Below are positions 1,946 through 36,097 of a stretch of DNA of 64,000 nt, piece by piece. The stretch is from an uncultured Alphaproteobacteria bacterium (lineage in GTDB: Bacteria; Pseudomonadota; Alphaproteobacteria; Rs-D84; CACZYB01). The DNA is taken from the NCBI GenBank assembly GCA_944392955.1, contig CALXYK010000004.1, positions 3,419 through 67,418 of the forward strand. The letters run 5' to 3'. The notes beneath the pieces were generated by a model that saw only the letters and a list, made by a program, of their open reading frames with translations, was not told the DNA's origin and made no database searches. The number at the start of each line of letters is the position of its first letter. The first letter of the stretch is position 1. A program made the translations under genes and the position numbers.

Positions 1946-2062
1946 CCCTCAAAACAAATAAAAACTCTTGCATTTTAAAAGGAATATGTTATAATCCGCC
2001 TAATCAGTGTGCACCCTTGGAGGCACCTGATACCTAATAAACATATAAAAAAGGATAAAAAA

Positions 2063-2728
2063 ATGTCAAACAAAGTTACATTCAAAGTACAAAAAAGAGA
2101 CAACAGTGGTAAGGGGGCCGCACGTGCTACAAGAAGGGCTGGACTCATTCCTGCTGTTATCTATGGAAATAAACAAGAACCAGAATTGATTGCAGTTGAT
2201 CCAAAGGATTTGCAAAAACAAATGCAAATAAAAGGGTTCAGAACTCGCCAATTTGAACTTGAAATAGAAGGAACTGGTAAAAAAGAACTTGCTCTTTGCC
2301 AGGCAATCCAATACCACAAAGTAAAGGATAATCCTATTCACATAGATTTTTTAAGAATTGACCTTAACAAAGAAATCTCCGTTGAAATTCCTTTCAACTT
2401 TATAAATGAGGAAACTTGTGTAGGTGTTAAAAAAGGTGGCGTTCTTAACATAGTAACCCGTGTTGCCGAAGTTATCTGTAAGGCATCCGATATGGTAGAT
2501 AGTATAGAAGTTGATGTTGGCAACTTAGATGTTGCTGAATCTATTCACTCTGGTTCAATTAACTTACCAAAGGGTTTAAGATTCGCATCTCATGAACCAT
2601 TTACAGTTGTAACTATTGCAGCCGCAGTGGAAGAAGTGGTAGAAACAGCTGCACCAGAAAGTGTTGATGTTCCTTCTGAAACTGAACAAAAGACAGCTGC
2701 AAAAGAAGCAGAAGCAAAAAATGAATAA
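2063..2728 (+). CDS. rplY: 50S ribosomal protein L25 / general stress protein Ctc
   Basis: Internal ATG with an upstream AAAAGGA ribosome-binding site. The N-terminus (KVQKRDNSGKGAARATRRAGLIPAVIYG) is typical of L25/Ctc. Acidic C-terminal tail. Confidence 0.85.
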   Translation: MSNKVTFKVQKRDNSGKGAARATRRAGLIPAVIYGNKQEPELIAVDPKDLQKQMQIKGFRTRQFELEIEGTGKKELALCQAIQYHKVKDNPIHIDFLRIDLNKEISVEIPFNFINEETCVGVKKGGVLNIVTRVAEVICKASDMVDSIEVDVGNLDVAESIHSGSINLPKGLRFASHEPFTVVTIAAAVEEVVETAAPESVDVPSETEQKTAAKEAEAKNE

Positions 2729-3818
2729 ACTATCTAATGATACTATTCATAAATTTAATAATACAAAGGAGGTTTTTGAAAAAAAACTTCCTTTTCTTTT
2801 GCAACGTAATAAAATAATAAAGGCAATAAAAACCTTTTTTGAAACAGAAAAATTTACAGAAGTTGACACACCTATATTACAATATTCCCCAGGTATGGAA
2901 GTTCACCTTTTTGGATTTGAAACAAAATTTAATGATATAACAGGAAACAATCCACAAAAGTTATATCTTCATACATCACCCGAATTTTCAATGAAAAAAT
3001 TACTTTCATTTGGGCTTCAAAATATATTTCAATTTACCCATACTTTCAGAAACGAAGTTGTATCCCCTACTCACTATCCCGAATTTACAATGCTTGAATG
3101 GTATAGGACAGGATACAATTATAAAAAACTAATGACAGATTGCGAAGAAATTTTAAGACAAACTCTTGCATCAATAAATGCCACCTATTTTGAATATACA
3201 ACACCTCAAAATATAAAAAAGACTTGCTACACCAACAACGGAATTGAAAAATTAACTATAAAAGAGGCTTTTGAAAAATATTGCCATTTTGATATATTAT
3301 CAACTATTGATAATCCAGAAAATCCATCAAAAATTTTATTATCAAACAAAGTAAAAGAATTAAATTTAAACATAAATATAACAGACATAGATACATGGGA
3401 TGATATTTTTGAAAAACTTATGTTTGAATATATAGAAGAAAACCTTGGAATAAACAAGCCAACTATATTATACGAATACCCTATACATCAGGCCGCATTA
3501 TCAAAACAAAGTCCAACAAATAAAAATATTGCAGAAAGGTTTGAATTATATGTATGTGGTATAGAATTGGCAAATGCATTCACTGAATTAACAGATCGTT
3601 CTATCCAGGAAAAACGATTTTTAAAAGATCAAAAAACAAAAAAAGATTTATATGGGAGCACCTTTCCAATAGATGAGGAATTTTTATTTTCTTTGGATAA
3701 TTTACAAAGTTGCACAGGTATCGCAATGGGTATAGATAGACTGATTATGCTTGCAACACATGCAAAAGATATAAAAGATACTCTTTGGATAGAAATTCCA
3801 TTTTTACAAGATATGTAA
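2721..3818 (+). CDS. epmA: EF-P-lysine ligase-like class II aaRS paralogue (EpmA/PoxA/GenX family)
   Basis: LysRS-like catalytic-core motifs (FRNE, EFTMLEWY, GIAMGIDRL) without an anticodon-binding domain. The ATG at 2721 overlaps the rplY stop. efp is present at 46213. Confidence 0.7.
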   Translation: MNKLSNDTIHKFNNTKEVFEKKLPFLLQRNKIIKAIKTFFETEKFTEVDTPILQYSPGMEVHLFGFETKFNDITGNNPQKLYLHTSPEFSMKKLLSFGLQNIFQFTHTFRNEVVSPTHYPEFTMLEWYRTGYNYKKLMTDCEEILRQTLASINATYFEYTTPQNIKKTCYTNNGIEKLTIKEAFEKYCHFDILSTIDNPENPSKILLSNKVKELNLNINITDIDTWDDIFEKLMFEYIEENLGINKPTILYEYPIHQAALSKQSPTNKNIAERFELYVCGIELANAFTELTDRSIQEKRFLKDQKTKKDLYGSTFPIDEEFLFSLDNLQSCTGIAMGIDRLIMLATHAKDIKDTLWIEIPFLQDM

Positions 3819-4460
3819 AGTTTTAATCGTATCTTTAATGTTTTTCTGAGAAAATAAAAAACTACCAACTACTAATACATTTGCACCTACATCAATAACC
3901 TTTTTCGCGGTATCAAAATTTATTCCACCATCAACTTCTAATAGAATTTTTTTATTTTGCTCTGAAATAAGCGATGAAATTTTTTCTATTTTTGTTATCT
4001 GATTATCCATAAATTTCTGCCCGCCAAAACCTGGTTCAACTGTCATAACCATAACAACATCAACAAAAGGTAAATACTTTTTTATTTTTTTAAAGGAAGT
4101 CTTAGGATTTAAAACTATCCCACTTTTTACATTTAACTTTTTAATCAATTTTAACGATTTCAAAACATTATCAGATTCACAATGAATAGTAATTATATCA
4201 GCACCAACATCAACAAAATTTTTAATATAAGGCAATGGATTTTTAATCATTAAATGCACATCAAATATTTTAGAAGAATGTTTACGAACACACTCAACAA
4301 AATGAGGTCCATAAGAAATATTCGGGACAAAAACACCATCCATTATATCAAAATGAATAAAGTCCAAATCTGATTCATTTATCTTTTTTATAGTATTTTT
4401 AATATCCATAAAATCTGTTGATAAGATACTAGCCCCGATTAAAACTTTTCTTCTTTTCAT
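3804..4460 (-). CDS. rpe: ribulose-phosphate 3-epimerase
   Basis: Motifs HFDIMDG, HLMI and MTVEPGFGGQKF. I trimmed the start to the internal Met (MKRRKVLIGAS), which removes the overlap with the next ORF. Confidence 0.85.
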   Translation of the reverse strand: MKRRKVLIGASILSTDFMDIKNTIKKINESDLDFIHFDIMDGVFVPNISYGPHFVECVRKHSSKIFDVHLMIKNPLPYIKNFVDVGADIITIHCESDNVLKSLKLIKKLNVKSGIVLNPKTSFKKIKKYLPFVDVVMVMTVEPGFGGQKFMDNQITKIEKISSLISEQNKKILLEVDGGINFDTAKKVIDVGANVLVVGSFLFSQKNIKDTIKTLHIL

Positions 4461-4461
4461 T

Positions 4462-6300
4462 TTACTTTTTCCTAAAAATTCTTTTGAACAAGGCACGTGT
4501 TTCCGAAGGATCCGTATCATCAGGATTATCTCCATAAATCTTATTTTCCAAATCCTTAGATGCATCATTAAATGCCTCAATGGTCAAGGTATTTATTTTT
4601 TCATCCTCTATATTCAAAACTATACGCTTAGAAAGTTCTTTTTCCTGTGTTGAAACAATAATAATTTTTTCTTTTGAAATATCCTGTAATAATTTTATAA
4701 GATTTTCTTTATACTTTTTTCTTAATCCCAAAAATGGCTGATCTAATAATATCACTCTTGGATTTCCAACAAAAACTCTAACAATACTCAAAAGTTTTAA
4801 TTCCTCTGGTGAAAGCAAATCCGTCTTATTATCAATCAAGGTATTATAGGCATTAGGTAGTTTTTCAATAACTTCATCAAATCCTAATAACTTAGACACT
4901 TCTTTATAACTCATGAAACCTGCAAACTTATCATCAACAGAATTTTTTGAAACTAAACAATTCAAGTTTTCTTTAACAGTTCCTTCTATCACAAAAGAAG
5001 TTTCCGAAGCATAACGAATATAATCTTTCAAACTTTCCGTTTTCAAATTTGCAACATTATATCTATCAAACAGAACTTCACCTTCTTCGTTTTCATAACC
5101 TCCAAACAAAGATTTTAAGAACAAAGAACCTTCAAAGGTATTTTTTGCCCTTAACACATAAAGCAAACCTTCCTTAAAAGTAAAATTCACATCTTTAAGA
5201 ATAACATTTTTTCTACTATCTTCTAATGTAAAATGTTTAAGTTCCAAATTTCCCAAGGTAACATCTTCTATTACCTCTGTCTTAATAGCATCTACCTGTT
5301 CCGACATAACCTGAGACAATCTTTCTGTAGAATTTATAAACTTAAAATACTCTGGCAAATATTTTATAAAACTATTAAACAAAAAGAAGGTCTGTGAAAA
5401 CAATAACAAAATAGCAACCACCTCACCCAAAGAAATCAAGTTCAAAGAAAATGAATGATATCCAGTCAAAGATAAGATTACTAAACCAACAAAATAAACA
5501 ACGAAAGTAAGCACTAAGAAAATATCCAAAGTAGAATTTCTTTTATAAGTGTTGTCTATAATACTTCTTTGATAATCCTTCCACATATACATAATTTTGT
5601 TGGATAATGACAAAGTTTTTAACGAAGACAAATTTCTAATGGTATTAGAAACAAGTTCATCACGTTCCTTTATTGCTAATTTTTCTTTATCATCAACAAT
5701 ACTTAACATATATATTGCAAAACCAACTATTACAAAATATACAAGGAAAATAAACAACATAATAAAGAAATATTTCCCTAATAAAATACCTATCATCCCC
5801 ATAAAGAAAAGGACAAAAGGAACATCAAAAAGGTTTATAACATACGAGGCAGATAAGCCATTTCTTATGACATCAATATCAGCAAAAACGGAATGCCAAA
5901 ATGCATCATTTTTCTTTTCCATTTTTTTTGCTGGAATTTTAAAAACTTTCTCCAATATTCCATTACAAATATTTGTATCAAGAGAACATAATATAAAGTT
6001 AACAACCGAACTTCTCATGTACCTAAACAAAAAATTAAAACACAAAACAGAAACTAAAAAAACTATATTAAAAAGTCCGTTTCCCTTAAATGATAAATCA
6101 ACCTTTCCATCTATTAAAAACATAATGATTAAAGGCACCATTACGGTCAGCATATTTATAAAAAACGACATAATAAAGACTCTCCATAACTCCTTTTTAA
6201 ATGGAGAAATTATCATAGATACATCGTATTTTGACTTGTCCAAATATACATCCATCACACTATTATTTACATGTTTATTTTCCATAATAAGTCCTATCAA
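4462..6300 (-). CDS. ABC type-I exporter-like protein (6-TM domain plus C-terminal nucleotide-binding domain) with degenerate ATPase motifs
   Basis: N-terminal half with 6 predicted TM helices. The C-terminal domain aligns to ABC motifs, but Walker A is RAKNTFEGS, the signature is LSPEE (not LSGGQ), Walker B is ILLDQ (catalytic Glu replaced by Gln) and the H-loop His is replaced by Gln. The 612-aa ORF is intact. Confidence 0.6.
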   Translation of the reverse strand: MIGLIMENKHVNNSVMDVYLDKSKYDVSMIISPFKKELWRVFIMSFFINMLTVMVPLIIMFLIDGKVDLSFKGNGLFNIVFLVSVLCFNFLFRYMRSSVVNFILCSLDTNICNGILEKVFKIPAKKMEKKNDAFWHSVFADIDVIRNGLSASYVINLFDVPFVLFFMGMIGILLGKYFFIMLFIFLVYFVIVGFAIYMLSIVDDKEKLAIKERDELVSNTIRNLSSLKTLSLSNKIMYMWKDYQRSIIDNTYKRNSTLDIFLVLTFVVYFVGLVILSLTGYHSFSLNLISLGEVVAILLLFSQTFFLFNSFIKYLPEYFKFINSTERLSQVMSEQVDAIKTEVIEDVTLGNLELKHFTLEDSRKNVILKDVNFTFKEGLLYVLRAKNTFEGSLFLKSLFGGYENEEGEVLFDRYNVANLKTESLKDYIRYASETSFVIEGTVKENLNCLVSKNSVDDKFAGFMSYKEVSKLLGFDEVIEKLPNAYNTLIDNKTDLLSPEELKLLSIVRVFVGNPRVILLDQPFLGLRKKYKENLIKLLQDISKEKIIIVSTQEKELSKRIVLNIEDEKINTLTIEAFNDASKDLENKIYGDNPDDTDPSETRALFKRIFRKK

Positions 6301-6305: not shown

Positions 6306-7559
6306 TTAACCAAAGTTTTCATCTAAAAACTTTTTAAACTTTTCCCAAAGGTTTTTGTGTTCCTTCTCATCTAAATTAGTATTATAATATAATATACCAG
6401 AAGATTTATAATAATAAAACAAAAAAAGTCCAACCAAAGTAGAATAAGTCGGATCGTCAAAATCATCTCCTAACTCTAAAAACTTTATTGGTTTAGCAAT
6501 TCTAGTAGGCAACCTGAACACTTCCTCTACTATTTCTTTAAATCCACGAAGTTTCGCACCACCACCTGTTAAAACTACCCTATGAAAGTATGGGGATATA
6601 TTTTTATCATCTAAACACTTTTTTAAGAATAAAACTATTTCTTTTGAAAGTTCATTAAGCACAGATAATAAATCAGACTTTAAAATATCCTTTGATTCAT
6701 TTTCTCCATTTTCCCCTATCATAAACACACTTATATATTCAGAAAAATCCAAAGGCAAAGGGAATTTTGCACCATATTTTTTCTTTAACCGCTCTGCCTC
6801 ATCAAATCTGACATTCATACGCTTTGACAATGAATTTGTAATAACATCCCCACCCAAATTCAATGACATATTATAAAGCAAGTTATTTTCTAAAAATACA
6901 GCAACAGACATTGTTGATTTACCAATATCAATAACTAAACTTCCTACTTTCTTATCATCATCAACCAATGTTGCCAAAGCCGAAGCATAAGAGTTGACAA
7001 CAACCCTTTTGACATTAAGATTTATTGAATTCAAAGAAGATATTAAATCCGAATACATTTTGGCATCTACGGTAATAATATGATAAAATATTTCTAACTT
7101 TTTTCCAAAAACTTTTTCTGGATTTTCAACTACATTTCCATCTACAACAAACCTTATAGGAACAACATGCACCAACTTTTCCTTATCCACATCTATATGT
7201 TTTAATATAGGAAGTAATCCCGAGCAATCCTGAATATCTTTTACAGAAATATTACGTTCAAAAGGCAATACTTTTGACGAAGAAAAAAAATAAGATTTAT
7301 AATTAAAATCGGATAAAGAAATCACTACATCAGAAACCTTTAAATGTTTCTTCTCCTCCGCCATATCCAAAGCAGCATTTACAGATTTTGTAAACTCAGA
7401 TACATTAACAACCCTACCATTTTTAAAACCAACAGATATGGCTTCTCCTTTACCTAACACAATTGGCTTATTATCCTTATCCAAAGAACAAACCATAACA
7501 CTAATTTTTCCAGAAGCAATATCAATAAAAGCAACCAAATTTTTTTTATCAAACGCCAT
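6306..7559 (-). CDS. ftsA: cell division protein FtsA
   Basis: Actin-fold motifs (DIGKSTMSVAVF, VLTGGGAKLRG). 417 aa. Immediately downstream of ftsQ. Confidence 0.9.
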   Translation of the reverse strand: MAFDKKNLVAFIDIASGKISVMVCSLDKDNKPIVLGKGEAISVGFKNGRVVNVSEFTKSVNAALDMAEEKKHLKVSDVVISLSDFNYKSYFFSSSKVLPFERNISVKDIQDCSGLLPILKHIDVDKEKLVHVVPIRFVVDGNVVENPEKVFGKKLEIFYHIITVDAKMYSDLISSLNSINLNVKRVVVNSYASALATLVDDDKKVGSLVIDIGKSTMSVAVFLENNLLYNMSLNLGGDVITNSLSKRMNVRFDEAERLKKKYGAKFPLPLDFSEYISVFMIGENGENESKDILKSDLLSVLNELSKEIVLFLKKCLDDKNISPYFHRVVLTGGGAKLRGFKEIVEEVFRLPTRIAKPIKFLELGDDFDDPTYSTLVGLFLFYYYKSSGILYYNTNLDEKEHKNLWEKFKKFLDENFG

Positions 7560-7560: not shown

Positions 7561-8301
7561 TTAGTTTTTCCTTTGTTTAATAAGAATTTTAGTCAAATCT
7601 CGTAAATCTATATCTGAAATATCTCTACTTAAAATCCCCTGTAAAACATCAAGTTCGGCTAATTTTGCCACACCTTTTTCAAAATTATTATCTAATTTTG
7701 CTGTCAATCCATCAGCAACATCATAAAATATCAAATTCCAACGTAAGCCATTAACATATTGAATTGCCACCAACCTATTCTTAAGATTCGGATATTTAGA
7801 TAAAAACTTTAATAAATTAAGAACTTCTGTTTCCGCACCATCACCAAACACCAAAAGCCCATCGGCATATTCAACAGGCATATTTAAAACTTCACCTGAC
7901 GAGGTAATAGGATAATACTTATCATTTAAAACCTTATAAGCAATAAATTGTTTAGAAGATATAACAATCTTAATTACATCTGGAAAATCACGAATAACTG
8001 AAACATTTTCTACCCAAGGAAGTTCCGAAATAGTTTTGGTTAAACCTTTGACATCAACATCAACTATTTTTTTTACTTCGGAATACGGAGTTATTAAATC
8101 TCTAATTGAAATCAAAGCAATATTTTTATCAATTGGTAAATTATTCAAAAATACTACTTCGGGATAAGTCATCTTGAAAACCTTATCTGATACCAAAGCC
8201 TGTCTAAACAGGAAAACAATCGTCATCAAAGATATTACTGACAACGATACCAAACAAAAAAACTTAAATTTCAAAAAAAATTTTTGCATATTAAAATTCA
8301 C
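7561..8301 (-). CDS. ftsQ: cell division protein FtsQ
   Basis: N-terminal TM segment and POTRA-like region. Two-nucleotide spacing to ftsA. Confidence 0.8.
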   Translation of the reverse strand: MNFNMQKFFLKFKFFCLVSLSVISLMTIVFLFRQALVSDKVFKMTYPEVVFLNNLPIDKNIALISIRDLITPYSEVKKIVDVDVKGLTKTISELPWVENVSVIRDFPDVIKIVISSKQFIAYKVLNDKYYPITSSGEVLNMPVEYADGLLVFGDGAETEVLNLLKFLSKYPNLKNRLVAIQYVNGLRWNLIFYDVADGLTAKLDNNFEKGVAKLAELDVLQGILSRDISDIDLRDLTKILIKQRKN

Positions 8302-8395
8302 ACTCTAAAACTACCTATTTATTATAACAAATTTTTTCCTTTTTTTAAATTAAAATTATTATATAATAACAAAAAAATAACAAAAGGAATAAAAT

Positions 8396-11187
<2,792 letters not shown>

Positions 11188-22750: not shown

Positions 22751-23632
22751 TCATATTTTAAAATCAGTCTTAACACGAAAACTTCCCAATGGGTAATTCC
22801 TGATTGGAAATATATTTTTCTTAGACGTCAATGGCATTTTTATATGCTCGCTTAGTATGGCACCCGCCACACTATCCAAACCATCATCATAACCGTTCAC
22901 ATTATCAAAATTCCATTCCGAAAACTCAGAAATAAACGGAGTTTGCCTTACCTTTTCATTAACAAATAAATATCCTGCCGAGGTAATAACATCAAAAGCA
23001 TCTAAAATCCTTAGATTTTTTGAAACTTTTGAATGTTTAGGAATAATTGTTGTAAAAATATTCATCTTTAATAATTCAGACTTCAAAAATTCTGGTAAAA
23101 ATTTACCAATTCCATTACTTTCCACATAAACAACAGGAATATGATTCCTTTGTAAAAAAGCCCCAACCTTACAACATTGTTCATGAGCAGATTGAACCTC
23201 TTGCCCATCAGAATGATAAAGGTATTCTATATCATGCAGGTAAAATTTCCCTTCTGTATCAATAAAGACGACAGAAATTACACTTCTATCACCATCTTTT
23301 GAACCATACGCAGGATCCCACCAGCAAGATACTTTTTCTATTTTTTTGCCTGCTATTGAAAAATTCAACAAATGATTCCTTTCTTCCATTAACAAATCAT
23401 CTGAATAAAAGGAAAGTTTTGACACATCAAACCTTCCCTCTTTCATATCAACAGGAATAAGCATCATTTGCGAAGAAAACTTTTTCAACCCAACCGTTTT
23501 TTTTAATTTTTCTATTTTTTCAATAGGAAATTTTTCATTCCAAACTGGTTTTCCATTTTCCATAACAGGAATTTTCAAAACATCATATCCAAAAAGAAAT
23601 GCTTCCTGATTTTCATCATCATTCATCTGCAT
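22751..23632 (-). CDS. phage large terminase, C-terminal nuclease-domain fragment (T7 gp19-like)
   Basis: RNase-H-like nuclease motifs: CWWDPAYGSKDGDRSVISVV, VVYVESNGIGK, NGYDDGLDSVAGA. These match the T7 gp19 C-terminal half as I recall it. No ATPase domain. An in-frame TAA lies immediately before the ATG. Confidence 0.8.
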   Translation of the reverse strand: MQMNDDENQEAFLFGYDVLKIPVMENGKPVWNEKFPIEKIEKLKKTVGLKKFSSQMMLIPVDMKEGRFDVSKLSFYSDDLLMEERNHLLNFSIAGKKIEKVSCWWDPAYGSKDGDRSVISVVFIDTEGKFYLHDIEYLYHSDGQEVQSAHEQCCKVGAFLQRNHIPVVYVESNGIGKFLPEFLKSELLKMNIFTTIIPKHSKVSKNLRILDAFDVITSAGYLFVNEKVRQTPFISEFSEWNFDNVNGYDDGLDSVAGAILSEHIKMPLTSKKNIFPIRNYPLGSFRVKTDFKI

Positions 23633-25136
23633 TTACAATCAACCTTTCTGGAACAGCAAATGTTTTAGCCAACCACAAGGCAACTGCCTTTTTATCAACT
23701 ATTGCCAATGCTTCTTCTCCCAACTCTGATAAAGATTTTATCCAACCTAAAATATTTTCAGCATCTCTAACCGCCTGATTTCTAGCAAGAGGTGATTGAT
23801 ATTTCAAATCTACTTCATGGCCATTAACCATGATATCGGAAATTTCACCCCTACGTCTTAATATAGAAATTGCTCTTAAAATAACTGGTGTTAAAAATTC
23901 GGATTGTAATCTTCCATAGGTTGCTCCTAAAATTCTGCTCATTTGATTTGTTCTTTCTAAAACTTCTGTCGCAGTCATTTTAGTAGTAGAAAACGAAGAT
24001 AACTGATCTACCAATAAACTATGATTTATTTTTGCCCGTAAATCTGATAAAACTAATTGAGATACATCAAAATCCGCACCAGTCCTAAGTGGTGTAAGTC
24101 CACTAGATCCAACTGCCTTTGGAATTATAGTTCCCGGAGCAAGAGTAATATTAGAAATATTTAAAACCCCATCATCATCTGCTTGCCATACACCACTAAC
24201 TGCAATACTAGCATTTTTTAAAATCAACTCCACAACTTTATTCGCAGTTTTAATATCGGGCAATGCTTTCATCACTGGCGATCTTCCATATACTTCTGAT
24301 GGAATTTTCAACCACCTGAAACAAATAAACGGAGAATATGCAAAAACACCAGTTTTCAAAACAAACATTTCATTATTTGTTAAAAGTTTATCTGCATCAT
24401 TAACAAAAGCGACATAATTATAACCTTGTTGACCACTAGGTGTAATTCTTGGCAATACTGCTTCTATAACACAAATTTTTTCATCAGGTTTTTTAGAAAT
24501 AATATTCAGCTGTTTATCATCAAATTTAAAATTAGGAAATCTAAGTTTTAAATTTTCCAAAGTCAAAATTGATTTTCTAAAAACAGTATCTAATTTACCA
24601 TTAACATTTTCTTCTAATGCAATTTCATTCATAGGAATTGCTGTAAAATTAAATGCGGTTGTTTCACCAACGCTATTTTCCTCAAATAACATTACCGCTG
24701 TTCCAACAGTAATTAAATCTAAATAACATTGATGAGCCTCAACATAAAAATTAGACCTATCAAAATGAGATTGCAAAACTTTTTGAATATCATCTAATGC
24801 CTTAAATTTTTCTTGTTTATCCCCATTATCTTTATCACAAGCATCAACACCGAAACCCAAACCAAACCATTTTGACCAAGGCGGAGTAAGTTGAGCCAAT
24901 AAACTACCTGCTAATTGTTCCACACCAGATTCAGCAGTAGAATCAAAAATATCAACATTTTTCTTTTTACCATTGGAAATAGAAGTAAATAAACCACTTT
25001 TTTGAGGCAGTGCATAATCATAACATTCACTCCAATGATTTTCCCATTCGGCCCTTTTTTCCATGGCTTTCTGATATCTAGCATAGATTTTAAAAAGTTC
25101 TGTTTCATCAACAATATATTTATTATTTTCAATCAT
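23619..25136 (-). CDS. phage portal / head-to-tail connector protein (T7 gp8-like)
   Basis: 505 aa. The N-terminal pattern (YARYQKAMEKRAEWENHWSECYDYALPQ ... LAGSLLAQLTPPWSKWF) parallels T7 gp8 (YERLKNDRAPYETRAQNCAQYTIP ... LASKLMLALFPMQTWM) as I recall it. Confidence 0.75.
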   Translation of the reverse strand: MIENNKYIVDETELFKIYARYQKAMEKRAEWENHWSECYDYALPQKSGLFTSISNGKKKNVDIFDSTAESGVEQLAGSLLAQLTPPWSKWFGLGFGVDACDKDNGDKQEKFKALDDIQKVLQSHFDRSNFYVEAHQCYLDLITVGTAVMLFEENSVGETTAFNFTAIPMNEIALEENVNGKLDTVFRKSILTLENLKLRFPNFKFDDKQLNIISKKPDEKICVIEAVLPRITPSGQQGYNYVAFVNDADKLLTNNEMFVLKTGVFAYSPFICFRWLKIPSEVYGRSPVMKALPDIKTANKVVELILKNASIAVSGVWQADDDGVLNISNITLAPGTIIPKAVGSSGLTPLRTGADFDVSQLVLSDLRAKINHSLLVDQLSSFSTTKMTATEVLERTNQMSRILGATYGRLQSEFLTPVILRAISILRRRGEISDIMVNGHEVDLKYQSPLARNQAVRDAENILGWIKSLSELGEEALAIVDKKAVALWLAKTFAVPERLIVNADE

Positions 25137-25157
25137 ATTAAACCTCTTTTTTTATTG

Positions 25158-25190
25158 ATTAAAAAAACTCCTAAGATTAACTTAGGAGTC
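25158..25190 (-). terminator. rho-independent terminator downstream of ftsZ
   Basis: On the minus strand: GACTCCTAAG-TTAAT-CTTAGGAGT followed by TTTTTTT. Confidence 0.55.
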
Positions 25191-25212
25191 ATTTGAAAAT
25201 ATTTATTATTTA

Positions 25213-26928
25213 TTAGTTATTATTCTTTTTAAATATTGCTGGAATTTCCAAAGTTTCTTCCATTTTTTTTATCATTTCCATCAAATCAGTCTGTTGACTT
25301 TCTCTTTTCTGTTCATCCAAACTTCCAGCCAAAAATACCACATTATCATCTTCTTTTTTTTCTTCTTTCTTAGAAATTGTGAAATCCAATTCTTTATCCA
25401 AAGATAACTTTACATCTTTATCACTACCAAAATTTTCTACATCATCAAAGAAATTATCTTCCTTTGATTCACCTAATAAATCAAAGAATGATGACAAAGA
25501 ACTTTTCTTTTTACCATTTCCACCACCATTGTCCGGAGGAGTTGGTTCATCATCATCATTATCTTCTTTTTTTGCAACCAAATCCATAGGTTCAGATTCG
25601 GAAATTTTTTGTGCTTCTCTATTTATAAAATCATCAATACTAGAAGGTGTATTTTGTTTTATAAAACTATCAAAGGAGTTTTCCTTTTCAAAATTTTCCA
25701 CTTCCTCCGTATTTTCAGAAAACAAAGCATCTGCTCCAAAATCACCTAAAACATTTTTTACATCTTTATCAAAAGTATCATCTTTAATAGGTAATGGTTT
25801 TTCCTCATCTTGACTATTTATATCATTATCAAACGAAGAAAAAGATGAGGTTGTTTTTTCAATACTATTATATGTATTAACATTTTCCTTCATACTGGGA
25901 AAAGTATTTAACTCATCTCTATGAATATTTTTTATTCCTACATTTTCAGATAATCCAGTTGCAATTATCGCGACCTTTAATGAATCGTCCATAGATACAT
26001 CAAAACAAGTTCCAAGATAGAAATTTGTATCATCACTATCAATAGAAGCCCTAATAGTATTCATAACTTCGGCAGGTTCGTCCAAGGATAAATTTTCAGG
26101 ATTAGCCGTTATGTTCACAAGGACTGATTTTGCCCCCCTTATATCATTTCCTTGAAGCAAAGGATTTAACAAAACACCTTCTACTGCCTTTAATGCCCTA
26201 TTTTCGCCACGTTGAACCGAAGTTCCTATTAAAGTTCTACCACTTTTTTCCATTACCGCACGAATATCAGCAAAATCCAAATTTATTGTTCCAGGAATTC
26301 TTATCAAATCGGTAATATTTCTAACTCCGTCATAAAGGACATTATCAGAAATTTTAAACGCATTCAAAAAAGTCATCTGTTTATCAACAACATTATAAAG
26401 ATTCTGATTAGGCAAAACTATATAAGAGTCGACATTAGGAATTAAATTATCAATCGCATCTTTTGCAATTTTTTCCTTCTTTTTCCCCTCAAAATCAAAC
26501 GGCGTTGTTACAATAGCAACGGTTAAAATACCCTTTTCCTTTGCAATAGAGGCAATCACAGGCAATGCACCACTTCCTGTTCCCCCACCCATACCAGCAG
26601 TTAAAAATAAAATATTTGAATTTTTGATTAAATCAGCAATTTCACCACTTGATTCTTCTGCTGCCTTTTGACCTATTTCAGGTCTAGAACCGGCACCAAA
26701 ACCTTTCGTAGTTTGCTTTCCCAGTTGGATTTTTTTCGGCGACTTTGATTGTAATAATGATTGAGCATCAGTATTGGCAACAACAAACTCTACACCATCA
26801 ATTCCCTGCTCTATCATATTATTAACAGCATTACAACCAGCACCACCAACCCCCATTACCATAATTTTTGGAATAAAATTTTGAATCTCATCATCAAGAG
26901 ATTTATAACCAAAATTTCCATCAAGCAT
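25213..26928 (-). CDS. ftsZ: cell division GTPase FtsZ
   Basis: Tubulin signature GGGTGSGA, GVGGAGCNAVN, T7 loop NLDFADI. Long disordered acidic linker. Conserved C-terminal FtsA-binding peptide (LEIPAIFKK). Start set at the Met preceded by AAGGGGGA. Confidence 0.95.
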   Translation of the reverse strand: MLDGNFGYKSLDDEIQNFIPKIMVMGVGGAGCNAVNNMIEQGIDGVEFVVANTDAQSLLQSKSPKKIQLGKQTTKGFGAGSRPEIGQKAAEESSGEIADLIKNSNILFLTAGMGGGTGSGALPVIASIAKEKGILTVAIVTTPFDFEGKKKEKIAKDAIDNLIPNVDSYIVLPNQNLYNVVDKQMTFLNAFKISDNVLYDGVRNITDLIRIPGTINLDFADIRAVMEKSGRTLIGTSVQRGENRALKAVEGVLLNPLLQGNDIRGAKSVLVNITANPENLSLDEPAEVMNTIRASIDSDDTNFYLGTCFDVSMDDSLKVAIIATGLSENVGIKNIHRDELNTFPSMKENVNTYNSIEKTTSSFSSFDNDINSQDEEKPLPIKDDTFDKDVKNVLGDFGADALFSENTEEVENFEKENSFDSFIKQNTPSSIDDFINREAQKISESEPMDLVAKKEDNDDDEPTPPDNGGGNGKKKSSLSSFFDLLGESKEDNFFDDVENFGSDKDVKLSLDKELDFTISKKEEKKEDDNVVFLAGSLDEQKRESQQTDLMEMIKKMEETLEIPAIFKKNNN

Positions 26929-27033
26929 TTTTTCCCCCTTTTGACTTCTTTCCTTAATTATATCATAAAAAAAGGTAAAAGTTAAGAGATAAAAACATAA
27001 AAACAAATAATTTTATTTTTTTAAGCAAAAAAA

Positions 27034-27486
27034 CTAAGAACCAACAAAATTGTCCAATGCCTTTTTGCATGCCTCCGAAGCATCTATCAACTTATTTATA
27101 TTAGAAAGAGCACCAGCAGACACACCAAGAGACAATACATTCGCACCTGTTGCAATACCAGAAGAAACCAAAGAAATAGTTCTATTTTTTTCTAGATTTT
27201 TCATATCATCAATGTCTATTTCTCCAGAACTTTTTGCTACATTATTAGCAGATAATGCAGTTGAAGTAGCAGATCCAGCCGTCGCAACAGCCGAAGTAAC
27301 ACCAGTTGTAATAGATTGAGCCTTCAAACTATTCAAAACAGATCCATCAAATTTACATGCAGAAATCACATCTGAAATATATGGTTCTTTCTTTCTTACA
27401 CTATCCGAAGATAATTTTGCCTCTGCACCAAAGGATAAAAAAGAAGCCGACACAACAAAAACTAAACTATAAGATAAAAACTTCAT
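27034..27486 (-). CDS. secreted Ala/Ser/Thr/Gly-rich protein
   Basis: Start at the Met with a GGAGG ribosome-binding site. Signal peptide MKFLSYSLVFVVSASFLSFGAEA. Low-complexity A/S/T/G segments. The C-terminal motif is similar to the C-terminus of the upstream 612-aa protein. Confidence 0.5.
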   Translation of the reverse strand: MKFLSYSLVFVVSASFLSFGAEAKLSSDSVRKKEPYISDVISACKFDGSVLNSLKAQSITTGVTSAVATAGSATSTALSANNVAKSSGEIDIDDMKNLEKNRTISLVSSGIATGANVLSLGVSAGALSNINKLIDASEACKKALDNFVGS

Positions 27487-27487
27487 T

Positions 27488-29326
27488 TTAATCCTCCATT
27501 CCACTAACTTCTGCATTATATGATGAATAAGCATTATTTAAGGTTCTAATACTATCTTCACATTGTTTTAAATTTGTTATTGCATCTTCTATCGTAGCAA
27601 GGGATACAAAACTTACAACAGATGCAGTTCCACTAGCAAGAGACGAAGCCGCACTTAACCCAACCTGCCATTTATCAAAATCTTTTGCTGAAGCCAAAGC
27701 TTTACCACTAGCATCTCTTAACTCATGTATTTTTGTTTTATTACTCTCTACTATTGCTTGTTTACTTGAGATAGATTCTAATTCTGCATTTTTTTGAGCT
27801 AAAAGTTCATTTTTATTTATTTTTTCGCTCTCTTTTTCTTGTTTAACCTCATTTTCAATTTGTCCTGGTTCAGATTTTTCAAGTTGGTCATTAACATCTT
27901 TTAATTTAATATTTAAATCCTCAATAACCTTGTCTATATTATCCATTTGGGACTTATAGTCATTACATTTATCAACATTTTCCTTTGCATCGTTTATTTT
28001 ATTATTTAACTCTTTTATTGTTTTTTCCTTCTCTTCCTTCTGGGATTTTAATTTGGAAATGGCACTCATTTTAGCTTCCTCTAATGCAGAATCTGTTTCA
28101 TTATTATCAGCATCCAATTCTCCCAAATCTTTCATAAGGACATCTATTGAATCATTAAGCCCCAATACCGCCTTTTTTGCATTTGCCAAACTTTCTTCAT
28201 TTGTTTTGTTGTCTGAAAGTTTATTTTCACAGGCTAAATTATTATAACTATTCTTAATAGTCGTTTGTTCTTTTTTTTGTTTTGCAATAACTTGCTCTAA
28301 AGCATCTTTTTCTGCTGTTAATTTAGTTTTTCTATCTTCTATTGTTCCATATTTAATAGTAGAAACTCCATTCAAATCTGTATTTTTTGATAAAATAATT
28401 TGTCCCTCTTCCAAATTTGATATATCACTATCAATAGACTCTATTTCTGTATTTAACTTAGCTACTTCTCTTTCTAACTTTTCTTTCTCCCCATCCAAAC
28501 CTTGACCTATACTTGTATTTTTAGTTCCAAGGCTCTTCTCTGCATCGTGATAATAAATTGCATCTTTTGTATTTTTAAGTGATAATGCACCAACAACTGT
28601 GCTACCTGTACTTAACACACTACCAACACCAGATGTCAAGGAAACCCCATAAGTTATTTGGGATTTAAGTTTTTCCATATCATTCACAAATGCACCACAT
28701 TTTTCTCGTGCAGTTTGAACTGCTGAATTTATTTTTTTCTCATATTCTGAAACATCAACAAAAATCTCGCTTTCCAAATACATAGAGGCGATTAAATTTC
28801 CCGCCCTTGTTACATAAAGTTTTCTTCTATCCGAAGATAATCCAGAGTTATCAACAACCGAACTAATCTGTGAATTTGTTCCATTTAACAAAGAAACCGA
28901 ATAACTATATTTAGGAAGCAAATCTACACATTTTATCTCCCCTTCCGCAGATACAACATCCATCGCCCCCGAAGAATCCATTCCAACCAATTTCATATAA
29001 GGACCGAAACAAAACTTTTCATCCAATTTAGCCGTTCCATTAGTATAATAATAATTATATACTGATGGTAATAACATAGTACTTAAACTATACGATTCAT
29101 CATAATATAATTTATCCAAATGCACCGAGTTTAAAAACCTTAACACAGATCCAGAAATATCCGAAGAATTAGAAGAGGAACTTGACGAAGTCGTACGTCC
29201 CGAAGATCTGCTATTTGGACTTCTACTGCCACCTGAATTAACTACACGAGCAGCGAACAATCCTCCATCTGAAAACAAATAAGATAAAAAGACCAATCCA
29301 CAAAGTAAATTAAACTTCTTTTTCAT
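27488..29326 (-). CDS. large secreted coiled-coil protein
   Basis: Signal peptide. Ser-rich low-complexity stretch. About 300 aa of Lys/Glu-rich heptad-like coiled coil. C-terminal A/S/T-rich domain. Confidence 0.55.
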   Translation of the reverse strand: MKKKFNLLCGLVFLSYLFSDGGLFAARVVNSGGSRSPNSRSSGRTTSSSSSSNSSDISGSVLRFLNSVHLDKLYYDESYSLSTMLLPSVYNYYYTNGTAKLDEKFCFGPYMKLVGMDSSGAMDVVSAEGEIKCVDLLPKYSYSVSLLNGTNSQISSVVDNSGLSSDRRKLYVTRAGNLIASMYLESEIFVDVSEYEKKINSAVQTAREKCGAFVNDMEKLKSQITYGVSLTSGVGSVLSTGSTVVGALSLKNTKDAIYYHDAEKSLGTKNTSIGQGLDGEKEKLEREVAKLNTEIESIDSDISNLEEGQIILSKNTDLNGVSTIKYGTIEDRKTKLTAEKDALEQVIAKQKKEQTTIKNSYNNLACENKLSDNKTNEESLANAKKAVLGLNDSIDVLMKDLGELDADNNETDSALEEAKMSAISKLKSQKEEKEKTIKELNNKINDAKENVDKCNDYKSQMDNIDKVIEDLNIKLKDVNDQLEKSEPGQIENEVKQEKESEKINKNELLAQKNAELESISSKQAIVESNKTKIHELRDASGKALASAKDFDKWQVGLSAASSLASGTASVVSFVSLATIEDAITNLKQCEDSIRTLNNAYSSYNAEVSGMED

Positions 29327-29454
29327 AACTAATTCTCCTACCTCTATGCTCTGTATGATAGCATATTTTTAGGCTTATATCAACAGATTATTACAATTAT
29401 TTACTTTTTTTGTTGCGTTTTGCTAAAATATCAGTTATAAATTACCTGTCCTTG

Positions 29455-29531
29455 TGGCAAGGTAGCTCAGTCGGTAGAGCAAAGGACTGAAAATCCTTGT
29501 GTCGGCGGTTCGATTCCGCCCCTCGCCACCA
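29455..29531 (+). tRNA. tRNA-Phe (anticodon GAA); the 3' acceptor strand looks irregular
   Basis: Manual cloverleaf. D-arm GCTCAGTCGGTAGAGC. Anticodon stem AAGGA/TCCTT with loop CTGAAAA. T-arm GGCGG-TTCGATT-CCGCC. By my count the acceptor has an A4-C69 mismatch and one extra C between the T-stem and the 3' acceptor strand. Confidence 0.8.
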
Positions 29532-29538
29532 AAAAATC

Positions 29539-29570
29539 AACTCCTTACTTCAAATGTAAGGAGTTTTTTC
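29539..29570 (+). terminator. rho-independent terminator after tRNA-Phe
   Basis: Hairpin CTCCTTAC-TTCAAAT-GTAAGGAG followed by TTTTTT. Confidence 0.5.
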
Positions 29571-29584
29571 ATAAATACATTTTA

Positions 29585-29765
29585 AACATCTGGTTCGTAT
29601 ACTCGTATAACACGCTAAGCCAAAAAAAATCCCCTGTTGCGAGGAGAGAACACGAACGAAGTTGTTCTTAATGACGAGCGGTGTTAGCGAGGAATTTTAG
29701 AACATCTGGTTCGTATACTCGTATCACCCGCTAAGCCAAAAAAATCCCCTGTTGCGAGGAGAGAA
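29585..29765. repeat. two ~66-bp direct repeats (29585-29650 and 29701-29765), the second ending in a stem-loop
   Basis: The units read AACATCTGGTTCGTATACTCGTAT(A/C)AC(A/C)CGCTAAGCCAAAAAAA(A)TCCCCTGTTGCGAGGAGAGAA and differ at 3 positions. In the second unit CCCCTGTTGCG pairs with CGCAACAGGG at 29788-29797 around a GA-rich loop. Confidence 0.6.
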
Positions 29766-30134
29766 GGAGGAAAGGAGAGAAAAGGAACGCAACAGGGAAT
29801 AACTTTGAAAATAAATTTAAAAATATACTTAAATTCACTTCACATTCTCGATTCTTAATATACTCGACAAAAAAAGTCAAGCGATTCTTTTTTTGGCTAT
29901 TTTTTAAAGTGATTTAAAAAGCAAAAAAAACACTAAAATCAAATAGTTAAAAAAATGATTTTTTTTAATAAGAATCAATATTGTCTATAAAAATCTACTA
30001 TCTAAAAGAAGCAAAAACACGATTCTTTTAACACAAAAAAAGAATCGACTCCGAATCTTTTAAAACACAGTAAAGTTTTAGCAATTTAATTACCAAATAG
30101 CAAATAAAAAAACACATTTTTACAAAAAAAATAT

Positions 30135-30232
30135 CCCTTAAGTCGAGGAGAGAGAGAAAATAAGGAGGGAATGACTTAAGGGATCTTCGGTTTTCACCGA
30201 ATTTGCCGAAATGAGGGGTCGTCTCGGCAAAC
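30135..30232. other. cluster of three consecutive hairpins in non-coding DNA (candidate structured RNA or recombination site)
   Basis: CCCTTAAGTC-(28-nt GA-rich loop AGGAGAGAGAGAAAATAAGGAGGGAAT)-GACTTAAGGG; TTCGG-TTTTCA-CCGAA; TTTGCCGA-AATGAGGGGTCG-TCTCGGCAAA. Confidence 0.4.
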
Positions 30233-30351
30233 TTTATATTCGTATTAACGAATTGCCTTCATTATACAAATCATTTATACTTTGTCAAGATATTTTTGCA
30301 AAAATATTTTTTCTGTATAAAACAATATAAAAATTCCCATAAAAACAACAA

Positions 30352-30951
30352 CTAAACTTTATATATTGTATCAATAGTATGTGGCGTCCCTATAAAAATT
30401 TGCATACCATCTGGAACTAAAATAAAATTGTATTCCAGTAATCTCTCCCTTAAATCAAGCCTTTTTTGATATGTATCACAATTTTTGGGAACCTCTACAT
30501 CATCAAAAATTATAACATCCGCCCTACTTCCCGTCGCATTAGACAATAAGCCAACTGCTAACATAGAGGGATCCCTTAACTCCTTACTTCTCACAACGGT
30601 AAAACTACCAGACGCCCAATCTGATTTTTTCTTTGGCCTAATATCTTCCATTAAAGGATTAACCTCTATAATACGTTTTACATTTTTAACCATTTTTCTC
30701 GCTAACATAGTATCAGCAGCCACCACCAAAATTCTTGTATTAGGATTTTTATACAAAAGCCAAGCACAAAATATTCCAACAATAGTTGACTTCCCACTAC
30801 TTCGAAAAGCCATCAACAAGCCCCTTTTTTTATCTGATAAATAGATACTTTCAAGCCATTTTGCAATTTTAATATGATGTTCTGGCGTATCTATTTCTTG
30901 TAATTTATTCCAAGCCAACAAAAACTTTTCAAAATTTAACTTTCTTTTCAT
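30352..30951 (-). CDS. phage large terminase, N-terminal ATPase-domain fragment (T7 gp19-like)
   Basis: Walker A LMAFRSSGKST. Walker B ADVIIFDDVE. Coupling motif IFIGTPHT. Nearly colinear with the T7 gp19 N-terminal region as I recall it (LQAFRGIGKSF...RADIIIADDVEIP...YLGTPQTE). The ORF stops right after the ATPase domain. Confidence 0.85.
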   Translation of the reverse strand: MKRKLNFEKFLLAWNKLQEIDTPEHHIKIAKWLESIYLSDKKRGLLMAFRSSGKSTIVGIFCAWLLYKNPNTRILVVAADTMLARKMVKNVKRIIEVNPLMEDIRPKKKSDWASGSFTVVRSKELRDPSMLAVGLLSNATGSRADVIIFDDVEVPKNCDTYQKRLDLRERLLEYNFILVPDGMQIFIGTPHTIDTIYKV

Positions 30952-30952
30952 T

Positions 30953-31393
30953 TTATAAAATATTCAAACTATAAAAAGCAGAATCCAACAATTTCAAAGC
31001 ATCTTTGTCTTTTGAAAGTAAATTTTTGTTTTTTTTGTAATTATAATTCAATTCATTTGTTTTTAAATCTAAATCTGAAAAATAATCATTATTTTTAATA
31101 TCTTCATCTACTTCTTTTTCTATATTACCAAGCAAAACAGCCGAAGAACCATCTGTAAAATCTAAACCATTTGCAGCCATAGTAGCCTTTTTCGTAGCAA
31201 GTTTAGATTTTAATAAATCTGTTTTTTCCTGCTCATATACTTGTTGTTTCTTTTTAATTTCAGCATCTGCTAATGCTTTCTCCTGTTTGGCCATTTCTGT
31301 CGCTGCCTTTTTAGCATCATTAGATTCTTTTATATCCATAACAGTTTTTGCAACATTTGCAACACCAGCGACAACACCTGTACTTACACCCAT
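30953..31393 (-). CDS. hypothetical coiled-coil protein (possible small terminase or internal virion protein)
   Basis: 146 aa. Lys/Glu/Ala coiled-coil segment. Its stop codon is 1 nt from the terminase ATG. Function not assignable. Confidence 0.35.
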   Translation of the reverse strand: MGVSTGVVAGVANVAKTVMDIKESNDAKKAATEMAKQEKALADAEIKKKQQVYEQEKTDLLKSKLATKKATMAANGLDFTDGSSAVLLGNIEKEVDEDIKNNDYFSDLDLKTNELNYNYKKNKNLLSKDKDALKLLDSAFYSLNIL

Positions 31394-31403
31394 AATTAAC
31401 CTC

Positions 31404-33311: not shown

Positions 33312-33318
33312 ATTTCAC

Positions 33319-33873
33319 CTACTTTCTTATATCCACAAGTGGGAAATTTACAAAAGATTTATTAGTTTCTTGCATACTATCAATAGATTTTGCCTCTCTT
33401 ATTTCCGAATTAAATAATTTATAAAATAAAGAATATTTACTAGTATCATTTAACAAAGAAATAGAAAGTTCAGCCGCCATCAGATAAACAAATGCAGAAA
33501 TAAACACAGGTGTAAAATATTCTTCGTTCACATTTGCAATATAATCCAAATACACCTCTTCATCATTACAATAAAGATAATTTCCTAAAATTTTATAAGG
33601 CGAATTAGAAGAAATTTTTAATGCTCGCAAAAAATCACCTGGCAAAGCATAAGAATAGCCATACTCACTTTTACTATCTTCAACAACTCTATTTAATTTC
33701 TGAGAAGCAGTCGCAAAACTCCACGAAAATATAGAAAGCAATTTATATTTTAGCGTAGAATATAAACTTCCACATATTTCAGCTTCCGGAGTTCCCTCAT
33801 CAAAAGACACAATTGCATTAGCCCCAATTTTGTTAAGGGCTTTGGAACATAAATCAATACTTGAAAAACTCAT
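33319..33873 (-). CDS. tail tubular protein A-like (T7 gp11-like)
   Basis: 184 aa. The N-terminal pattern ALNKIGANAIVSFDEGTPEAEICGSLY parallels T7 gp11 [30 protein letters not shown] as I recall it. Located between the capsid gene and gp12-like, as in T7. Confidence 0.55.
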   Translation of the reverse strand: MSFSSIDLCSKALNKIGANAIVSFDEGTPEAEICGSLYSTLKYKLLSIFSWSFATASQKLNRVVEDSKSEYGYSYALPGDFLRALKISSNSPYKILGNYLYCNDEEVYLDYIANVNEEYFTPVFISAFVYLMAAELSISLLNDTSKYSLFYKLFNSEIREAKSIDSMQETNKSFVNFPLVDIRK

Positions 33874-33931
33874 ATTATCACCTTTTTATTCAAAAGCCCC
33901 TTTATACAAAGGGGCTACAATTAACTTAAAA

Positions 33932-34189: not shown

Positions 34190-34217
34190 TTTTATATTTC
34201 CTCCTATTTAGTTTTAA

Positions 34218-35048: not shown

Positions 35049-35155
35049 AATTTATATCTCCTTATTTTTTATTAAACTAACGATAGGTTAAAACCTACCA
35101 ATTAAAAAAATCCGCCATATAAATGACGGATTAAAAGTATAATTAAACCCAAATT

Positions 35156-35722: not shown

Positions 35723-35730
35723 AGAAACTT

Positions 35731-35997: not shown

Positions 35998-36097
35998 ATT
36001 CCTCTCCTTATTAAACAAAAGACAACTACAATATACCATATAAAAAAAAAGACTGCAACATCAAAAATAAAAAAAAGTAAAAAAAATTTAAAAATTT

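Follow-up and report, generated by a model that had tools for sequence, protein, structure and literature searches.

An ABC exporter fold conserved without its ATP-site motifs and encoded with ftsQ and ftsA in uncultured Alphaproteobacteria

Non-catalytic ATP sites are tolerated in a number of ATP-binding cassette (ABC) exporters, among them TM287/288, TmrAB, TAP1/2, BmrCD, CFTR, and SUR, the last two of which also set a precedent for an ABC exporter fold that works as a channel or regulator. In known heterodimers, one chain supplies the Walker A and B motifs and the H-loop of the degenerate site, the other chain supplies its signature, and one site stays intact. ATP-independent use of exporter-like folds has precedents of its own in SbmA/BacA and in the channel gating of CFTR. 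To our knowledge, the described ABC exporter exceptions to ATP-driven cycling keep at least one working or ATP-binding site. Here we analyze a 64,000-nucleotide stretch of contig CALXYK010000004.1 from an uncultured alphaproteobacterium (hereafter, the window), in which a gene that we refer to as ABCx encodes a half-transporter that has lost both halves of the ATP site, keeps a constrained nucleotide-binding domain (NBD), and lies in an apparent ftsQ-ftsA operon. One-site degeneracy and ABC proteins acting as channels or regulators are already known, whereas this combination is new, and full-text literature searches on dead or degenerate ABC exporters, on ABC genes beside ftsA, and on alphaproteobacterial variants of the dcw cluster yielded no description of the ABCx family.

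ABCx spans 4462..6285 on the minus strand, which also carries every protein feature of the window described below unless a plus sign is given. It encodes 607 amino acids (aa) from an ATG at 6285, the likely start, with an AGGA Shine-Dalgarno sequence 8 nt before it; an alternative TTG at 6300 would give 612 aa. The longer open reading frame (ORF), 4462..6300, had been described in the earlier note with no strand; it is real and lies on the minus strand. The 607-aa protein is an exact match to database protein P0001, and GC content at the gene is about 28–30%, like that of its flanks. The earlier note had also assigned ABCx the architecture of a type-I ABC exporter, with six transmembrane (TM) helices and an NBD, and on this Pfam, an AlphaFold2 (AF2) model, and Foldseek agree; we call it the type IV exporter fold. 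Pfam places ABC_membrane (PF00664) at aa 41–306 (3.8e-11, 43.6 bits against a cut-off of 28) and ABC_tran (PF00005) at aa 368–523 (8.5e-11, 43 bits against a cut-off of 25). The AF2 model (predicted local distance difference test, pLDDT, 78.5; predicted template modeling score, pTM, 0.61) contains six long TM helices plus the NBD, the latter at a pLDDT of about 80–88, and Foldseek matches it to PCAT1, HlyB, and PrtD at TM-scores of 0.75–0.86. A family profile searched against PDB sequences returned the same three proteins (2e-42, 1e-36, and 3e-29, respectively), and TM287/288 and TmrAB are also among the structural matches from the PDB profile and Foldseek. By the AF2 model and Pfam, the transmembrane domain (TMD) occupies aa 22–329 (5299..6222), with two cytoplasmic coupling helices, and carries family-specific conserved motifs such as VDDKEKLAIKERDELVS (aa 197–213) and WxDYQ (aa 235–239). 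The pseudo-NBD, delimited by Pfam ABC_tran and the PDB profile alignment, follows at aa 345–567 (4585..5253).

All seven ATP-site elements of this domain are non-canonical. We took the motif register from a MAFFT alignment with ABC proteins of type I secretion systems (T1SS), a hidden Markov model profile against PCAT1, HlyB, and PrtD from the PDB, and Foldseek of the AF2 model; these three independent alignments to canonical exporters concur, which rules out the mis-registration that had been raised as a possible flaw. Numbering follows the 607-aa protein, and family counts come from a 49-sequence alignment. In the A-loop slot FTLED (aa 352–356; 5218..5232), Asp replaces the adenine-stacking Tyr of the canonical F-S-Y, and no family member (0/49) keeps the aromatic residue. 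The Walker A slot reads RAKNTFEGS (aa 379–387; 5125..5151) where a canonical exporter has GKIGSGKST, with Glu at the P-loop Lys position; GxxGxGK[ST] is missing as the earlier note had claimed, and it is canonical in 0/49. The main clade keeps the pattern R-A-K-N-T-F-[ED]-x-S, and the slots of the deep lineages diverge (KGRLSSSES, RDEKN-QLD, KNSFDNSSE). The Q-loop slot YASETS (aa 425–430; 4996..5013; canonical YVSQES) has its Gln replaced and is variable within the family. The signature slot is LSPEE (aa 491–495; 4801..4815) and not LSGGQ, again as first read, with the family form [LM]-S-x-E-E and no canonical member among the 49. Walker B, ILLDQP (aa 512–517; 4735..4752; canonical LLDEP), keeps its Asp, and the reported change of the catalytic Glu to Gln proved correct, with Gln in 40 and Glu in one of the 49 sequences; this natural DQP aligns with the engineered, hydrolysis-dead E648Q mutant of PCAT1 (4s0f). 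The D-loop slot LGLRK (4717..4731; LGLR at aa 519–522) stands in place of SALD or SSMD, its LGL conserved in the family. In the H-loop slot VSTQE (4642..4656; VSTQ at aa 544–547; canonical VTHK), the switch His is indeed lost (kept in 0/49), but Gln as its replacement does not extend to the family, whose members carry Q, L, T, E, or other residues.

The replacements are themselves conserved across the family as RAKNTF[ED]xS, [LM]SxEE, DQP, and LGL, and the dead motifs hold in members at only 25–43% identity and at host GC contents of 26–63%. Orthologues with canonical motifs, which would have pointed to a single decaying copy, were not found; the altered motifs are common to all 49 family sequences. 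Within the NBD, the Walker B Asp515 and the core residues G402, N440, and R503 are invariant. From these sequences, we infer that ABCx neither binds nor hydrolyzes ATP.

A word-indexed search of 5.8 billion proteins recovered a tight family (P0001–P0041) of about 590–610 aa at 43–100% identity; below P0041, identity drops to 23%, with canonical exporters. An exhaustive HMMER search of 1.84 billion representative proteins added P0086, P0088, P0089, P0091, P0092, and P0097 at 25–43% identity, and among those representatives the family amounts to about nine clusters at 50% identity. A scan of genome collections returned 12 orthologous loci, all in metagenome-assembled genomes (MAGs) labeled Alphaproteobacteria or Rickettsiales bacterium, or in mislabeled bins; named sample sources include rumen, deer rectum, and Hadza human gut, and most of those named are animal guts. 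The family is confined to uncultured Alphaproteobacteria. Since its host genomes span 26–63% GC, conservation acts at the protein level. No curated family captured ABCx in Pfam and NCBIfam scans. Its best NCBIfam models are T1SS ABC families, all far under their cut-offs (TIGR03375 LssB, 172 against 693 bits; TIGR01842 PrtD, 141 against 510; TIGR01846 HlyB, 87 against 726), and database labels on family proteins read "ATP-binding cassette domain-containing protein" or "bacteriocin exporter". In the canonical sequences closest to the family (P0093, P0095, P0099, and others), the GxNGSGK[ST], LSGGQ, DEP, and TH motifs are intact. The P0093 locus has the order OEP...ABC-AprE and lies beside gcrA, which marks P0093 as alphaproteobacterial. 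Because these nearest relatives are AprD-like secretion ABC proteins, the sequences indicate that ABCx derives, as an offshoot, from an alphaproteobacterial AprD/PrtD-type T1SS ABC half-transporter.

We next quantified selection as the ratio of nonsynonymous to synonymous substitution rates (dN/dS) by the Nei-Gojobori method. Most orthologue pairs have dS >0.9 and are saturated, so only the ratio for L003/L004 (dS 0.41) is reliable and the others are indicative. ABCx gave a dN/dS of 0.060 in L003/L004 and 0.062 in L001/L002, the lowest of the six locus genes in both pairs tested; the other five gave 0.07–0.08 (ligA), 0.08–0.10 (rsmE), 0.11–0.15 (rpe), 0.12–0.27 (ftsQ), and 0.09–0.36 (ftsA). 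For the NBD, the ratio ranged over pairs from 0.025 to 0.07 and fell under the TMD value in most. Identity to the window protein tells a similar story: in each of the 11 loci with ftsA and ftsQ, ABCx is more conserved than FtsA and FtsQ (for example, 77% against 56% and 57%, or 43% against 28% and 26%), and it is more conserved than Rpe except in L003 and L012, where Rpe is equal or slightly higher. The elevated substitution rate expected of a decaying gene is not seen; ABCx is under stronger purifying selection than its five neighbors. Together with the altered motifs shared by 49 homologues, these low ratios bear out the suggestion of an intact, repurposed non-catalytic ABC protein and not a fresh pseudogene.

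Beyond the NBD, an acidic linker (aa 568–595; 4501..4584; net charge about −7) differs in length and sequence between lineages and is predicted to be disordered, with AF2 pLDDT <50 from aa 570. It ends in a basic-hydrophobic C-terminal peptide, RALFKRIFRKK (4465..4497; net charge +6). The family form is RALF(K/R)RIFRKK, and all complete members, even at 25–30% identity, carry its hallmark core, [RN]-[AS]-x-F-[RK]-[RK]-[IVL]; the alignment did not find this tail in the nearest canonical relatives. The hydrophobic moment of the tail equals or exceeds those of known membrane-targeting helices. It is no better than that of same-residue shuffles, and we therefore dropped the claim of an amphipathic helix and term the tail basic-hydrophobic only. 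The idea that the tail is a copy of the FtsZ C-terminal peptide was also rejected, as only A-[IL]-F-K-[KR] is common to both, the invariant Pro is missing, and the upstream E-T spacing differs. We treat the likeness of the tail to the FtsZ peptide and to the MinD tail as a lead suggested by short sequence stretches, not as a finding.

ABCx is the third gene of the apparent operon ftsQ-ftsA-ABCx-rpe. This begins with ftsQ (7561..8301; Pfam POTRA_1 and FtsQ_DivIB_C) and continues with ftsA directly upstream of ABCx (6306..7559; Pfam FtsA and SHS2_FTSA) and, after it, rpe (ribulose-phosphate 3-epimerase; 3804..4460; Pfam 2.8e-65). The best promoter-like site lies upstream of ftsQ (8349..8321), and between ftsA and rpe the promoter and terminator scan detected nothing resembling a terminator on the minus strand. 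The adjacency to ftsA noted before stands, with the ftsA stop (6308..6306) 20 nt upstream of the ABCx ATG. The claimed overlap between the ABCx stop and the rpe start does not: the stop (4464..4462) is followed by 1 nt and then by the rpe ATG at 4460, and the overlap appeared because a longer, TTG-started rpe ORF had been taken. The Shine-Dalgarno sequence of rpe sits within the last ABCx codons. In the main clade, rsmE followed by the divergent ftsQ-ftsA-ABCx-rpe cluster occurs in all 11 complete GTDB loci, and the outer genes vary.

Among the deep lineages, P0086 (43% identity) has the ftsQ-ftsA-ABCx-rpe block with 1-nt and 4-nt junctions, and P0089 (33%) has ligA and then ftsQ-ftsA-ABCx, with a 14-nt overlap. 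At P0091 (30%), the locus comprises ftsQ, a divergent FtsA (E = 7e-15 to the window FtsA), and ABCx, with prmC on the other strand and no rpe. P0088 has rpe after ABCx on a contig too short to show the upstream neighbor, P0092 has ABCx, a 200-aa gene, and rpe with no ftsA at the locus, and P0097 has neither ftsA nor rpe at its locus. With the main clade counted in, four of the seven deep lineages keep the ftsA link, the most distant of them at 30% identity, and four keep the rpe link. The tight or overlapping junctions indicate co-translation.

The earlier note had placed ABCx in the slot normally occupied by ftsZ. As a position this is right, since an outgroup alphaproteobacterium has the order mraY-ftsW-murG-murB-ftsQ-ftsA-ftsZ, but ftsZ is not absent: an intact copy (25213..26928; Pfam Tubulin, 1.8e-48, and FtsZ_C), with the C-terminal peptide LEIPAIFKK, lies 19 kb from the ftsQA cluster.

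Some observations on these neighborhoods stand apart. In the comparison of two close relatives, L001 and L002 (ftsQ 7999..8730, ftsA 8729..9979), FtsA and FtsQ are only 68–70% identical, with dN/dS of 0.27–0.36, against 88–92% identity and dN/dS of 0.06–0.08 for ABCx, LigA, and RsmE in the same genomes, which suggests relaxed or diversifying selection on these early divisome proteins in that lineage. The 200-aa gene between ABCx and rpe in the P0092 lineage (L023, 2966..3568, plus strand) encodes an N-terminal TM helix and a basic, Arg/Asn/Tyr-rich tail; its protein has no Pfam match, and ftsQ and ftsA are not at that locus. The 632-aa gene upstream of P0097 (L021) has no Pfam match and no match to the window, and is uninformative.

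We consider it very probable that ABCx is functional and not an ATPase. Our overall reading, that it is a lineage-specific pseudo-ABC protein kept as an ATP-independent scaffold or regulator linked to the divisome, is offered tentatively, as an account whose likelihood falls just short of even; that ABCx acts with the divisome is, taken by itself, plausible but somewhat doubtful. The data themselves show the whole exporter fold, the loss of every ATP-site motif, strong purifying selection, descent from an AprD/PrtD-type half-transporter, the conserved operon context, and the conserved tail. Under this proposal, ABCx would be kept as a non-enzymatic membrane protein, most likely forming the usual homodimer like its relatives. 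ABCx, FtsQ, and FtsA would be made together from one operon, ABCx would work at or with the divisome, and the NBD, dead but conserved, would offer a surface for protein interactions. The two Glu of the former signature might pair, in place of ATP, with basic residues from what was the P-loop, and the basic tail on its acidic linker could act as a tether to the anionic inner-membrane surface or to a cytoplasmic partner such as FtsA. A bolder version, which we think unlikely, would make ABCx an unrecognized core divisome protein of an uncultured, mostly gut-associated alphaproteobacterial clade: an ATP-free, permanently dimerized hub closed by the P-loop/signature pairing, with its tail on FtsA (competing with or complementing the FtsZ peptide) or on the septal membrane, that arose as ftsZ moved to a domesticated T7-like locus.

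Several points weigh against the scaffold or regulator proposal. The hosts of ABCx are uncultured MAGs. The ftsA link is absent from two of the seven deep lineages (P0092 and P0097), and the upstream side of P0088 is unread. The gene rpe is a housekeeping gene with no division role known to us, and it is linked to ABCx about as often as ftsA is, so inherited gene order may account for part of the adjacency. The FtsA orthologues retain an amphipathic membrane-targeting helix at their own C-terminus, and FtsA therefore needs no ABCx anchor. The hydrophobic moment of the tail (0.55–0.63) is reached by 26–34% of same-residue shuffles, and the likeness of the tail to the FtsZ peptide (AIFKK against ALFKR) covers five residues and lacks the invariant Pro. 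Finally, non-canonical nucleotide binding by ABCx is possible on the sequence evidence.

An alternative that we regard as rather unlikely, while taking it seriously, is that ABCx is a transporter, channel, or lipid scramblase that works without ATP, either passively or on the proton motive force, and whose ftsQA position is incidental or serves growth coupling. Such a role would fit the complete, well-conserved TMD, in which family-specific charged motifs line the parts of TM4 and TM5 that extend into the cytoplasm, and also the two deep lineages that keep ABCx with no adjoining ftsA. Yet constraint on the NBD is no weaker than on the TMD, and in most pairs it is stronger (dN/dS 0.025 against 0.075 in L003/L004), which is unexpected if the membrane part alone mattered. 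No membrane-fusion, outer-membrane-factor, or substrate gene adjoins ABCx in any locus examined, and the conserved cytoplasmic tail has no obvious transport role. It is quite improbable, in our judgment, that ABCx is instead a non-catalytic subunit that pairs with or regulates a canonical half-transporter encoded elsewhere, such as an AprD-type T1SS ABC protein, as the earlier note had allowed. Many heterodimeric exporters carry one degenerate site, the structural matches include TM287/288 and TmrAB, and the closest canonical relatives are alphaproteobacterial T1SS ABC proteins; but in ABCx the Walker A half is degenerate as well as the signature half, which would leave a heterodimer without any intact ATP site. 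Moreover, no partner gene adjoins ABCx in about 20 loci, and the 64-kb window holds no other type IV exporter TMD; a profile search of the window ORFs for a partner half-transporter returned only LptB and the MacB-type ATPase, through their NBDs.

ABCx might also use non-canonical residues to bind, and perhaps slowly hydrolyze, a nucleotide or another phosphorylated ligand, and so act as a ligand-gated switch in the manner of SUR or CFTR site 1. RAKNTFEGS does keep Arg, Lys, and Ser/Thr, the main clade conserves the basic residues of this P-loop slot, and Asp515 and its three companion residues are invariant. Against this stand the simultaneous change of all seven nucleotide-contacting elements (the Gly-rich P-loop backbone and the aromatic residue of the A-loop among them), a P-loop slot that is not kept in the deep lineages, and two Glu in the signature slot that would be expected to repel a gamma-phosphate, and we rate such a switch as very improbable. 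A decaying pseudogene or annotation artifact, for which only the loss of catalytic motifs speaks, is refuted: the frame is intact at about 590–610 aa in more than 40 sequences from genomes of 26–63% GC, dN/dS is about 0.06 and the lowest at the locus, and both the altered motifs and the tail are conserved in their own right.

The relocated ftsZ lies in surroundings of a different kind, a conserved cluster, about 15 kb long, of T7-like (podovirus) structural genes (22751..37496), with counterparts at L032 1..14200, L033 2300..13800, and L010 13900..21749. In the window, it comprises a scaffold gene (PF05396; 36098..36685), the major capsid gene (PF19821; 34218..35048), a nozzle or tail tubular protein gene (31404..33311), an internal virion protein gene (30953..31393), and an ORF for the N-terminal ATPase of the terminase large subunit (30352..30951); then come ftsZ, the portal gene (PF12236; 23619..25136), and an ORF for the C-terminal nuclease of the terminase (22751..23632). 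Two diverged relatives, of 31% and 55% GC, keep this order, including the split terminase with ftsZ and portal between its halves, and one of them has an ABCx orthologue on the same contig. Their FtsZ proteins are 57% and 48% identical to that of the window, and their capsid proteins, at 82% and 77%, are above FtsZ. The GC content of the cluster tracks that of the host, and no integrase, replication, or lysogeny gene was found among the annotated and searched cluster genes, several ORFs having no matches. On these features, we read the cluster as a phage-particle locus that has been domesticated and passed on vertically, possibly resembling a gene transfer agent (GTA), and not as a prophage. 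A 2026 report calls Faecalibacterium FpGTA the first podovirus-like GTA-like element (PMC12946183), and the window locus may therefore be undescribed.

Between the terminase N-terminal ORF and ftsZ, the window also carries two ORFs of 166 and 612 aa (27034..29326) with no Pfam or PHROG match and a tRNA-Phe (29456..29531, plus strand), none of which occurs at that position in L032 and L033. A homologue of the 612-aa protein, at 26% identity, occupies the corresponding place in L010, which has no ftsZ there. As its contents differ between loci, the gap between the terminase N-terminal half and portal seems to be a variable cargo site. The FtsZ of this clade (window 25213..25290; P0235–P0296) has an unusually long conserved C-terminal region, TDLMEMIKKMEETLEIPAIFKK, which forms an acidic, helix-like stretch ahead of the usual FtsA-binding peptide, and within the clade the protein aligns over its full length, "linker" included, at 56–72% identity. 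In other Alphaproteobacteria, FtsZ ends in ...DELDIPAFLRRQAN or ...NLEIPSFLRRK.

Elsewhere in the window, a complete MacAB-TolC-type efflux operon (39887..44491) encodes an outer-membrane factor (43103..44491), an HlyD-type adaptor (41865..43079), a canonical ABC ATPase with GPSGSGKST (41146..41853), and a MacB/FtsX-type permease (39887..41143), which is of the MacB type with a periplasmic core domain and is the FtsX-domain protein of the window. This operon holds the only membrane-fusion and outer-membrane pair in the window and has its own ATPase. Convergent with rpe is a truncated gene resembling class II lysyl-tRNA synthetase (2661..3818, plus strand), with a Pfam match to tRNA-synt_2 only, which we read as EpmA/PoxA type. 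Its longest ORF shares about 68 nt with the 3′ end of the gene upstream of it (2009..2728, plus strand), which from its sequence appears to encode ribosomal protein L25, and the true start of the synthetase-like gene is probably further downstream.

The ABCx family would offer a natural case in which a whole exporter fold, NBD included, is under very strong selection without any ATP site. It would allow a test of what the exporter scaffold does without its motor, and of NBDs as pure interaction modules. The placement of ABCx with ftsQ and ftsA, together with the relocated ftsZ, yields the testable hypothesis of a lineage-specific divisome component in poorly known gut Alphaproteobacteria. In the meantime, current annotation labels of ABCx proteins mislead metabolic and secretion-system inference.

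Among known systems, ABCx most resembles the T1SS half-transporters without an N-terminal peptidase domain (PrtD/AprD type, and also HlyB and LssB, with the peptide exporter PCAT1), which share its domain order and length and provide its best NCBIfam, PDB-sequence, and Foldseek matches. It differs from them in lacking any ATP-site motif, in scoring far under the family cut-offs, and in adding an acidic linker plus a basic C-terminal peptide; its neighbors in the main clade are ftsA and rpe, whereas the canonical P0093 is followed by AprE. The heterodimeric exporters and the eukaryotic ABCC proteins CFTR and SUR retain a consensus site and still bind ATP at their degenerate one, whereas an ABCx dimer would have two dead sites, and no partner gene lies by ABCx in the window or at the other loci. 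SbmA/BacA, in which an exporter-like TMD functions without an ATPase, resembles ABCx as pictured in the ATP-independent transporter alternative; SbmA has no NBD, whereas ABCx keeps a complete and highly constrained NBD fold.

Two further comparisons come from cell division. FtsEX is a type VII ABC divisome complex, a signaling and scaffolding device rather than a transporter, that interacts with FtsA and FtsZ (review PMC11627006). Like the proposed ABCx, FtsEX is an ABC-superfamily membrane complex that serves division and not transport; it differs in consisting of an FtsX/MacB-type permease and a separate FtsE ATPase and in needing ATP hydrolysis, and the Pfam scan found no FtsX domain (PF02687) in ABCx. 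The terminal peptides of division proteins, namely the amphipathic helices of MinD and FtsA and the FtsZ peptide, resemble the ABCx tail as short conserved ends on variable disordered linkers. The membrane-targeting tail of MinD is KKGFLKRLFGG, and the ABCx tail follows the same small-hydrophobic-hydrophobic-basic-basic-hydrophobic-Phe pattern; with the host FtsZ tail, EIPAIFKK, it has A-[IL]-F-K-[KR] in common. These resemblances span five to seven residues, the ABCx tail lacks the invariant Pro of the FtsZ peptides, and, unlike the MinD, FtsA, and FtsZ peptides, it belongs to an integral membrane protein that needs no targeting.

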